NCBI RefSeq assembly: GCF_003334385.1 | Contig: NZ_QOWN01000139.1 | DNA from: Escherichia coli | GTDB taxonomy: Bacteria; Pseudomonadota; Gammaproteobacteria; Enterobacterales; Enterobacteriaceae | Length of the DNA: 977 nucleotides | Direction: 5' to 3' (one strand) | In this document: positions 327-342 of the stretch, in pieces | How positions within the stretch are numbered: position 1 is the stretch's first letter | How the letters are laid out: every line of letters begins with the position of its first letter | Made by a program: the position numbers and the translations under genes | The notes under the pieces: generated by a model | The model's input: only the letters and a program-made list of their open reading frames with translations | The model's database searches: none | What the model was told of the DNA's origin: nothing

Positions 327-342
327 AGAAAAAAAGAAAAAG
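327..342. repeat. Homopolymer-rich A/T tract (A7 and A5 on +; T5-C-T7 on minus) in the 3' UTR of the DUF3168 gene
   Basis: + strand 327..342 is AGAAAAAAAGAAAAAG. It sits directly after the DUF3168 stop codon on the minus strand and is not coding on the sense strand. Confidence 0.5.

Follow-up and report, generated by a model that had tools for sequence, protein, structure and literature searches.

The stretch of DNA analysed here, referred to as the window, is a 977-nt segment of an Escherichia coli contig (NZ_QOWN01000139.1) and carries three genes, all on the minus strand. The 3′ part of a gene for a neck/tail completion protein of the HK97 gp10 family (684..977) runs past the window edge and is followed by a complete gene for a tail terminator, or tail completion, protein of 114 aa (343..687, with a TGA stop at 345..343) and by the 5′ part of the major tail subunit gene (1..276, with the ATG at 276..274), which also runs past the window edge. 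The 114-aa product matched PF11367, once named DUF3168, with an E-value of 1.7e-7 and the phrog_347 family ("tail terminator") with an E-value of 2e-17, while a full-length homologue of the product of the 1..276 gene matched the major tail protein family phrog_158 with an E-value of 5e-118. The window is 98.5–99.3% identical to many Stx1a-, Stx2a- and Stx2c-converting phages and to related E. coli prophages. Of 5426 complete E. coli genomes, 1245 contain the locus, with 2924 occurrences overall and up to eight in a single genome.

The sole sizeable non-coding part of the window is the 66-nt spacer that separates the stop of the tail terminator gene from the ATG of the major tail gene (277-342) and whose mRNA reads UGA-C-UUUUU-C-UUUUUUU-CUACAAACCCCAUAC-[CCCGC CGCGU GCGGG]-UUUUUU-AUUAUC-AGGAGG-CAGA-AUG. 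The AGGAGG (281..286, minus strand), seen in the sequence as the Shine-Dalgarno motif of the major tail subunit gene, was invariant in an alignment of eight close phage records, and a promoter pattern scan of the whole window found no sigma-70-like promoter on either strand. At this same junction the gene starts of two GenBank records look wrong. In vB_EcoS-689R5 (579-660) the major tail subunit CDS begins 8 nt past the upstream stop, a start that puts both the conserved terminator hairpin (see below) and the Shine-Dalgarno motif within the coding sequence, and in BP-4795 (308-437) the annotated start of ORF64 lies 129 nt upstream, overlapping the tail terminator gene.

Within this spacer the initial annotation had pointed to A7 and A5 homopolymers, placed between the DUF3168 stop and a hairpin. 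Both runs were confirmed: window positions 327-342 read AGAAAAAAAGAAAAAG, where A7 (329-335) and A5 (337-341) account for 12 A within 13 bases. Their placement was correct as well, the stop lying at 345..343, the hairpin at 313..299 and the ATG at 276..274. Only the strand had to be amended, because with all genes on the minus strand the A runs are real on the plus strand but the transcript contains U5-C-U7; from the UGA onward the mRNA continues as C-U5-C-U7, directly 3′ of the tail terminator gene stop. An A/T run of at least 7 was obtained in 3.5% of mononucleotide shuffles and in 5.5% of first-order Markov simulations of the window, and a 13-nt stretch with at least 12 A or T in 0.04% of simulations of the window. 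The tract is denser than the window composition (57% GC) predicts, i.e., it is non-random relative to the window, although a whole-window null is generous for a tract located in the one non-coding spacer of any size.

The hairpin downstream of the tract, CCCGC-CGCGU-GCGGG (299..313, minus strand), consists of 5 G-C pairs closing a 5-nt loop, has a predicted energy of -7.5 kcal/mol and lies 22 nt upstream of the major tail ATG. It is followed by a U6 tail (293..298; A6 on the plus strand), which is T6 in nearly all of the 122 phage and prophage copies described below. A tblastn search with the tail terminator protein retrieved HK97-type phages at 29–63% identity, and nine of their junctions were compared with that of the window, namely those of HK542, ENT39118 (Cronobacter), Fraca, mEp234, HK97, two Klebsiella phages, Proteus Pm34 and Halomonas H4907. 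Their spacers measure 52–59 nt, versus 66 nt in the window. A G+C-rich hairpin of 5–9 bp (-7.5 to -16 kcal/mol) with a U-run directly after it was present in all 11 lineages, and the distance between the end of the hairpin and the major tail ATG stayed at 16–23 nt from E. coli to Halomonas phages. The stems were compared by direct registration from the loop, as a MAFFT alignment places the 5′ arms out of register when loop lengths differ; RNAalifold run on the MAFFT spacer alignment returned only a U:G/U:A helix, with the arms out of register, and did not recover the conserved stem. With the stems registered from the loop, GC to CG exchanges between lineages were observed at pairs 2 and 3 and a CG to AU exchange at pair 5. 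The element at 313..293 hence combines what is expected of an intrinsic terminator, that is a G+C-rich stem, an immediate U-run and a structure kept despite sequence change. Judged on its sequence, it is predicted to be an intrinsic terminator and is probably the functional element of the spacer, at which transcripts would end and through which Q-modified polymerase would read.

This hairpin is already known, being recorded in the annotations of HK97-type phages: the homologous position carries the GenBank label of (putative) rho-independent terminator in HK97 (NC_002167), HK542 and mEp234. The late operon of HK97 contains seven same-sense putative terminators, this one included, and the major tail gene has one of them close on each side. 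Our literature search on HK97 late-operon terminators retrieved only papers on the tail terminator protein. What the present survey documents is that phages from those of E. coli to those of Halomonas conserve the hairpin and its U-run ahead of the major tail gene. The junction of the tail terminator and major tail subunit genes (gp11 and gp12 in HK97), as found in HK97, HK542 and mEp234, resembles that of the window in its homologous tail terminator protein (48–63% identity), in a spacer of 52–66 nt and in a GC hairpin with a U-run placed 16–23 nt before the ATG. It differs in the stem, which is AACCCGCC/GGCGGGUU in the HK97 type and CCCGC/GCGGG in the window, the window hairpin being the weakest of the compared set at -7.5 kcal/mol, and in the sequence between stop and hairpin, which in the HK97 type is C/A-rich and devoid of the T5CT7 tract. 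In this comparison, the tract is an add-on of the Stx-phage lineage, lying outside the conserved element.

Similar hairpins also precede the major capsid, major tail and J genes of the close relative Lys8385Vzw, where they lie in the intergenic spacers (2476-2493, 8259-8273 and 15514-15537). More generally, same-sense terminator-type hairpins are scattered across the late operons of HK97 (3309-15129) and Lys8385Vzw and tend to directly precede genes for abundant or large structural proteins, a placement that could reflect stabilisation of mRNA segments as much as termination.

The tract is contained in a 29-nt linker free of G (CUUUUUCUUUUUUUCUACAAACCCCAUAC; 314..342, minus strand) that joins the stop codon to the terminator hairpin. 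Linkers at this position were 15–29 nt long (15–21 nt in the HK97-type relatives) and contained 0 or 1 G in 10 of the 11 lineages. Their sequence is not conserved, being C/A-rich in HK97-type phages and U-rich in the window, and the T-tract was absent from the HK97, HK542, mEp234, ENT39118, Fraca, Klebsiella, Proteus and Halomonas relatives. The poverty in G could come from the avoidance of pairing with the C-rich arm of the hairpin, or from a C/A-rich RNA element.

Copies of the locus were surveyed by a pattern scan of IMG/VR with invariant anchors, which gave 114 loci, and by alignment of the eight close phage records. Allele frequencies were tallied over 122 phage and prophage copies, over the 114 copies with full flanks and, as exact copies, in finished RefSeq E. 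coli genomes. The comparison of tract length across homologous prophage copies, proposed in the initial annotation, revealed that the length is not invariant. The most frequent form on the gene strand was T5CT7 (56 of 122 copies; 52 of the 114 with full flanks; an exact copy in 582 finished E. coli records), followed by T5CT6 (46 of 122; 43 of 114; 401 records), whereas T5CT8 was rare (3 of 122; 3 of 114; 35 records) and an interrupted run occurred once (1 of 122; 1 of 114). A short allele, in which the stop is TAA and is followed by a single T6, making it 8 nt shorter, accounted for 16 of the 122 copies (15 of 114) and had an exact copy in 319 finished E. coli records. The long allele is thus kept in about 85% of copies. 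Among the aligned phage records, phi330 has T5CT6, the window, Lys8385Vzw and Stx2c_PV98-693 have T5CT7, Stx1_14040 has T5CT8, and Stx2a_WGPS6, BP-4795 and PPompW_14040 have the short allele.

The length-polymorphic part of the tract is the longer run, i.e., the U7/T7 at 329..335 (minus strand; A7 on the plus strand), which is T6, T7 or T8 among copies, all three lengths being found among copies more than 98% identical. The U5/T5 run at 337..341 (minus strand; A5 on the plus strand) has a fixed length in all long-allele copies and is gone from the 8-nt-shorter allele. Over about 700 aligned nt, indels present in more than 3 of the 114 copies were confined to the spacer, where they affect the T-run, a C3/C2 run and the 8-nt allele. 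The small C-run, at 318-321, is C2 instead of C3 in 23 of the 122 copies and represents a second homopolymer polymorphism of the spacer; at the same positions the window bears a private substitution, reading CTACAAACCCC on the gene strand versus CTACAAAACCC in the other 121 copies. In sequence, the long allele resembles the short one with a single T5C-type unit added, and a rare intermediate (2 copies) couples a tract of the long type with downstream SNPs of the short type. The short allele also differs just 5′ of the terminator stem, where an A in place of C adds two A-U pairs and brings the predicted energy to -10.1 kcal/mol, versus -7.5 kcal/mol in the long allele.

Sequencing errors at homopolymers could lie behind some of the T6/T7/T8 calls that come from draft assemblies, and the T-run, like the 8-nt allele, is a likely spot for such errors in assemblies. 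The counts in finished genomes, however, argue against sequencing error as the main source of these calls. Moreover, T6 and T8 copies coexist, in different prophages, in one finished O157:H7 genome (PV15-279), which indicates that the polymorphism is not just an assembly artefact.

The view that the tract is prone to slippage, put forward in the initial annotation, was borne out, as its length varies in finished genomes and the T6, T7 and T8 states recur on the tree of the flanks, i.e., they are homoplasic. When 60 flank haplotypes were placed on a neighbour-joining tree, at least 14 changes of tract state were needed, against a possible minimum of 4 and an expectation of 25 for randomly assigned tips. 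Five haplotypes with identical 593-nt flanks carry more than one tract state, three of them both T6 and T7, and all four combinations of T6 or T7 with C3 or C2, about 10 nt apart, exist among the 122 copies. The T5 block, the T6 of the short allele and the T6 of the terminator are, by comparison, near-invariant in length over the 122 copies, and such near-fixation of the shorter runs is expected if slippage rises with run length. The tract state is heritable and yet recurrently changing, which fits a mildly slippage-prone run, even though part of the homoplasy could derive from recombination between paralogous prophages and not from new slippage. T8 is stably common to the PPompW prophages of several strains, indicating that switching is slow and nothing like a phase-variation rate. 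In all of this the tract behaves as an ordinary mononucleotide-repeat slippage polymorphism, with the longest run varying by ±1 among near-identical copies, nearby shorter runs fixed and changes recurrent, and no difference of substance from ordinary slippage of a non-coding homopolymer was observed.

The tract is therefore real but ordinary, a length-variable T run lying untranslated between two tail genes in an E. coli phage of the Shiga-toxin type. Our preferred explanation, to which we assign a probability of roughly 0.7, is that it represents a pyrimidine run specific to this lineage, prone to slippage and devoid of its own function, which fills the G-free linker before the conserved terminator. 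The linker would have two needs to satisfy, namely to be long enough to hold the hairpin outside the footprint of a ribosome stopping at the UGA and to be free of G's competing for the C-rich 5′ arm of the hairpin, and a T-rich filling would serve them as well as a C/A-rich one. With only these two needs, one T more or less in a linker of 28–30 nt should be neutral. The hairpin (313..293) would stop unmodified RNA polymerase as an intrinsic terminator. During lytic growth, Q-antiterminated late transcription would read through it, as presumed for the other late-operon terminators of the HK97 type. Late transcription of lambdoid and Stx phages from PR′ is described as dependent on Q antitermination in a passage of PMC7547250, hence Q-modified polymerase should read through the hairpin.

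The position of the tract and its lack of conservation suggest that variation in T-run length is neutral. No target for this variation was found, the tract lying outside any ORF, having no overlapping promoter and being absent from the HK97-type relatives. As anticipated in the initial annotation, a change in length alters spacing and leaves the reading frame untouched, since the tract lies 3′ of the stop in an untranslated spacer; its more cautious suggestion, that this may simply be AT-rich spacer or a U-rich 3′ UTR, also agrees with our data, the spacer being U-rich and nothing suggesting a function for the variation. Nevertheless, given a pyrimidine density far above chance and the retention of the long allele by about 85% of copies, the tract may have a modest RNA-level role in this lineage, such as pausing, protein binding or provision of a processing site.

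A rival reading would make the tract the U-tail of an additional intrinsic terminator, formed by the upstream hairpin AGGUCAC-GGU-GUGACUU (340..356, minus strand) together with UUUCUUUUUUU, standing in tandem with the conserved terminator and mainly active when the tail terminator gene is untranslated. This hairpin spans the UGA stop and is terminator-like by pattern only: the pattern scan flagged it together with UUUCUUUUUU, but the same loose scan gives 0.8 ± 1.0 matches per window by chance, as estimated from shuffles. It does appear in the minimum-free-energy fold and is followed by a long U-tail that the roughly 85% of copies with the long allele provide. On the other hand, it is weak, with -5.8 kcal/mol and 3 G-C pairs, it cannot form in the short allele (0.0 kcal/mol) that the 319 finished records carry as an exact copy, and no equivalent of it is conserved in the HK97-type relatives. 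With the stop codon in its 3′ arm, a terminating ribosome would be expected to melt it. A tandem terminator at this site is consequently unlikely, although it retains some credit.

It is rather improbable, too, that the U-rich tract is a site for a protein acting on the RNA, i.e., an RNase E cleavage site or an Hfq/S1 binding site in the single-stranded linker. The outcome would be either a hairpin set at the 5′ end of a stabilised major tail mRNA, or a 3′-UTR-derived, Hfq-bound RNA ending at the terminator. The linker is unstructured in the predicted fold and free of G, annotated hairpins flank the HK97 major tail gene on both sides, and hairpins stand ahead of the major capsid, major tail and J genes of Lys8385Vzw. 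The order of hairpin, U-rich stretch, terminator hairpin and poly-U further resembles the Hfq-binding module attributed to Ishikawa 2012 in the text of PMC4104026. This U-richness is not conserved, however, the linkers of the relatives being C/A-rich. Furthermore, the Rfam matches are sub-threshold (isrK, 17.7 bits versus a gathering score of 50) and driven by the generic terminator, and no catalogued prophage sRNA of EHEC or EPEC was found at this junction in the literature text searched. PasB, the known sRNA of a prophage structural operon, maps elsewhere and on the opposite strand.

The window does display the pattern of a terminator hairpin and poly-U preceded by a U-rich single-stranded stretch. 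Both the Hfq-binding module (Ishikawa 2012, in the form cited by PMC4104026) and PasB share with it a U-rich stretch upstream of a U6-tailed terminator and a setting in a prophage structural operon; in the window, on the contrary, the U-rich stretch lies 16 nt from the hairpin, is unconserved in relatives and belongs to no above-threshold Rfam family. We consider it highly improbable that, in the Stx-phage lineage only, a U5CU7 insertion upstream of the terminator would have created an Hfq module and hence a small 3′-UTR RNA of the tail terminator gene, acting on host or phage targets, with T6, T7 and T8 tuning the affinity for Hfq. If true, an Hfq-module RNA ending at, or processed to, the terminator would be present in up to eight copies per EHEC genome.

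Two candidates for a known RNA at this spacer were examined and discarded. The matches to Rfam isrK and Trp_leader do not stand as homology, since they fall below threshold and are due to the generic terminator hairpin with its U-tail. PasB is not the RNA of this spacer either, as it belongs to a different locus and its probe sequence is absent from the window: it maps to NC_011601 1466261-1466343 (E. coli E2348/69), in prophage PP6, where the tail assembly protein I gene and gpJ are separated by a 240-nt gap that holds PasB in antisense orientation. As a validated Hfq-dependent sRNA, PasB illustrates that the spacers of lambdoid tail operons can host sRNA genes, although PasB itself sits at another junction than the present one.

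A role of the tract in phase variation (a contingency switch), or in coding or recoding, has an almost negligible probability, since the tract, whose length does differ between copies and among close strains, lies after a stop codon and is neither inside an ORF nor between -35 and -10 elements, no promoter overlapping it, and since the stability of T8 across the PPompW prophages of several strains implies slow switching. The tract thereby differs from contingency loci, being in neither an ORF nor a promoter spacer, and typical phase-variable tracts are longer than runs of 6–8. Recoding was considered in the form of a stop readthrough that would join the tail terminator and major tail proteins, as no stop interrupts the 23 codons that link the TGA (UGA then C) in frame to the ATG in the window, and of an antisense ORF of 67 aa (316..519, plus strand) beginning at 316, in which the A-run encodes KKKK. 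Both were rejected: of 112 copies, only 48 keep the stop and the ATG in the same sense frame and only 46 have an antisense ORF of at least 60 aa. With conservation in fewer than half of the copies, the two frames just reflect how long the tract is.

The idea that the homopolymers bend the DNA found no support. The centres of A7 and A5 are about 7 bp apart, out of helical phase, thus strong intrinsic curvature is not expected, and neither the short allele nor the HK97-type relatives have the tracts. The A6 (293..298) lies 36–43 bp from A7/A5, and the arrangement as a whole departs from the repeat of about 10–11 bp proper of phased A-tracts. A role of the A-tracts as promoter or UP element was likewise discarded, there being no promoter-like site on either strand.

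On our preferred reading of a slippage-prone run filling the linker, the tract matters little, the eye-catching homopolymer being probably a neutral filler and the neighbouring terminator hairpin the functional element. The T6/T7/T8 run and the 8-nt allele could nonetheless be of minor use in typing, to tell apart the many paralogous lambdoid prophages of EHEC genomes. Lastly, in one IMG/VR contig (from about 8474 onward) homology to the locus stops exactly after the T6 of the terminator and unrelated sequence (GTAAGCGTCAACGGAGCACCGTATTGACGCTTA...) takes the place of the Shine-Dalgarno motif and major tail gene, which puts a rearrangement or insertion breakpoint at the U-tail.
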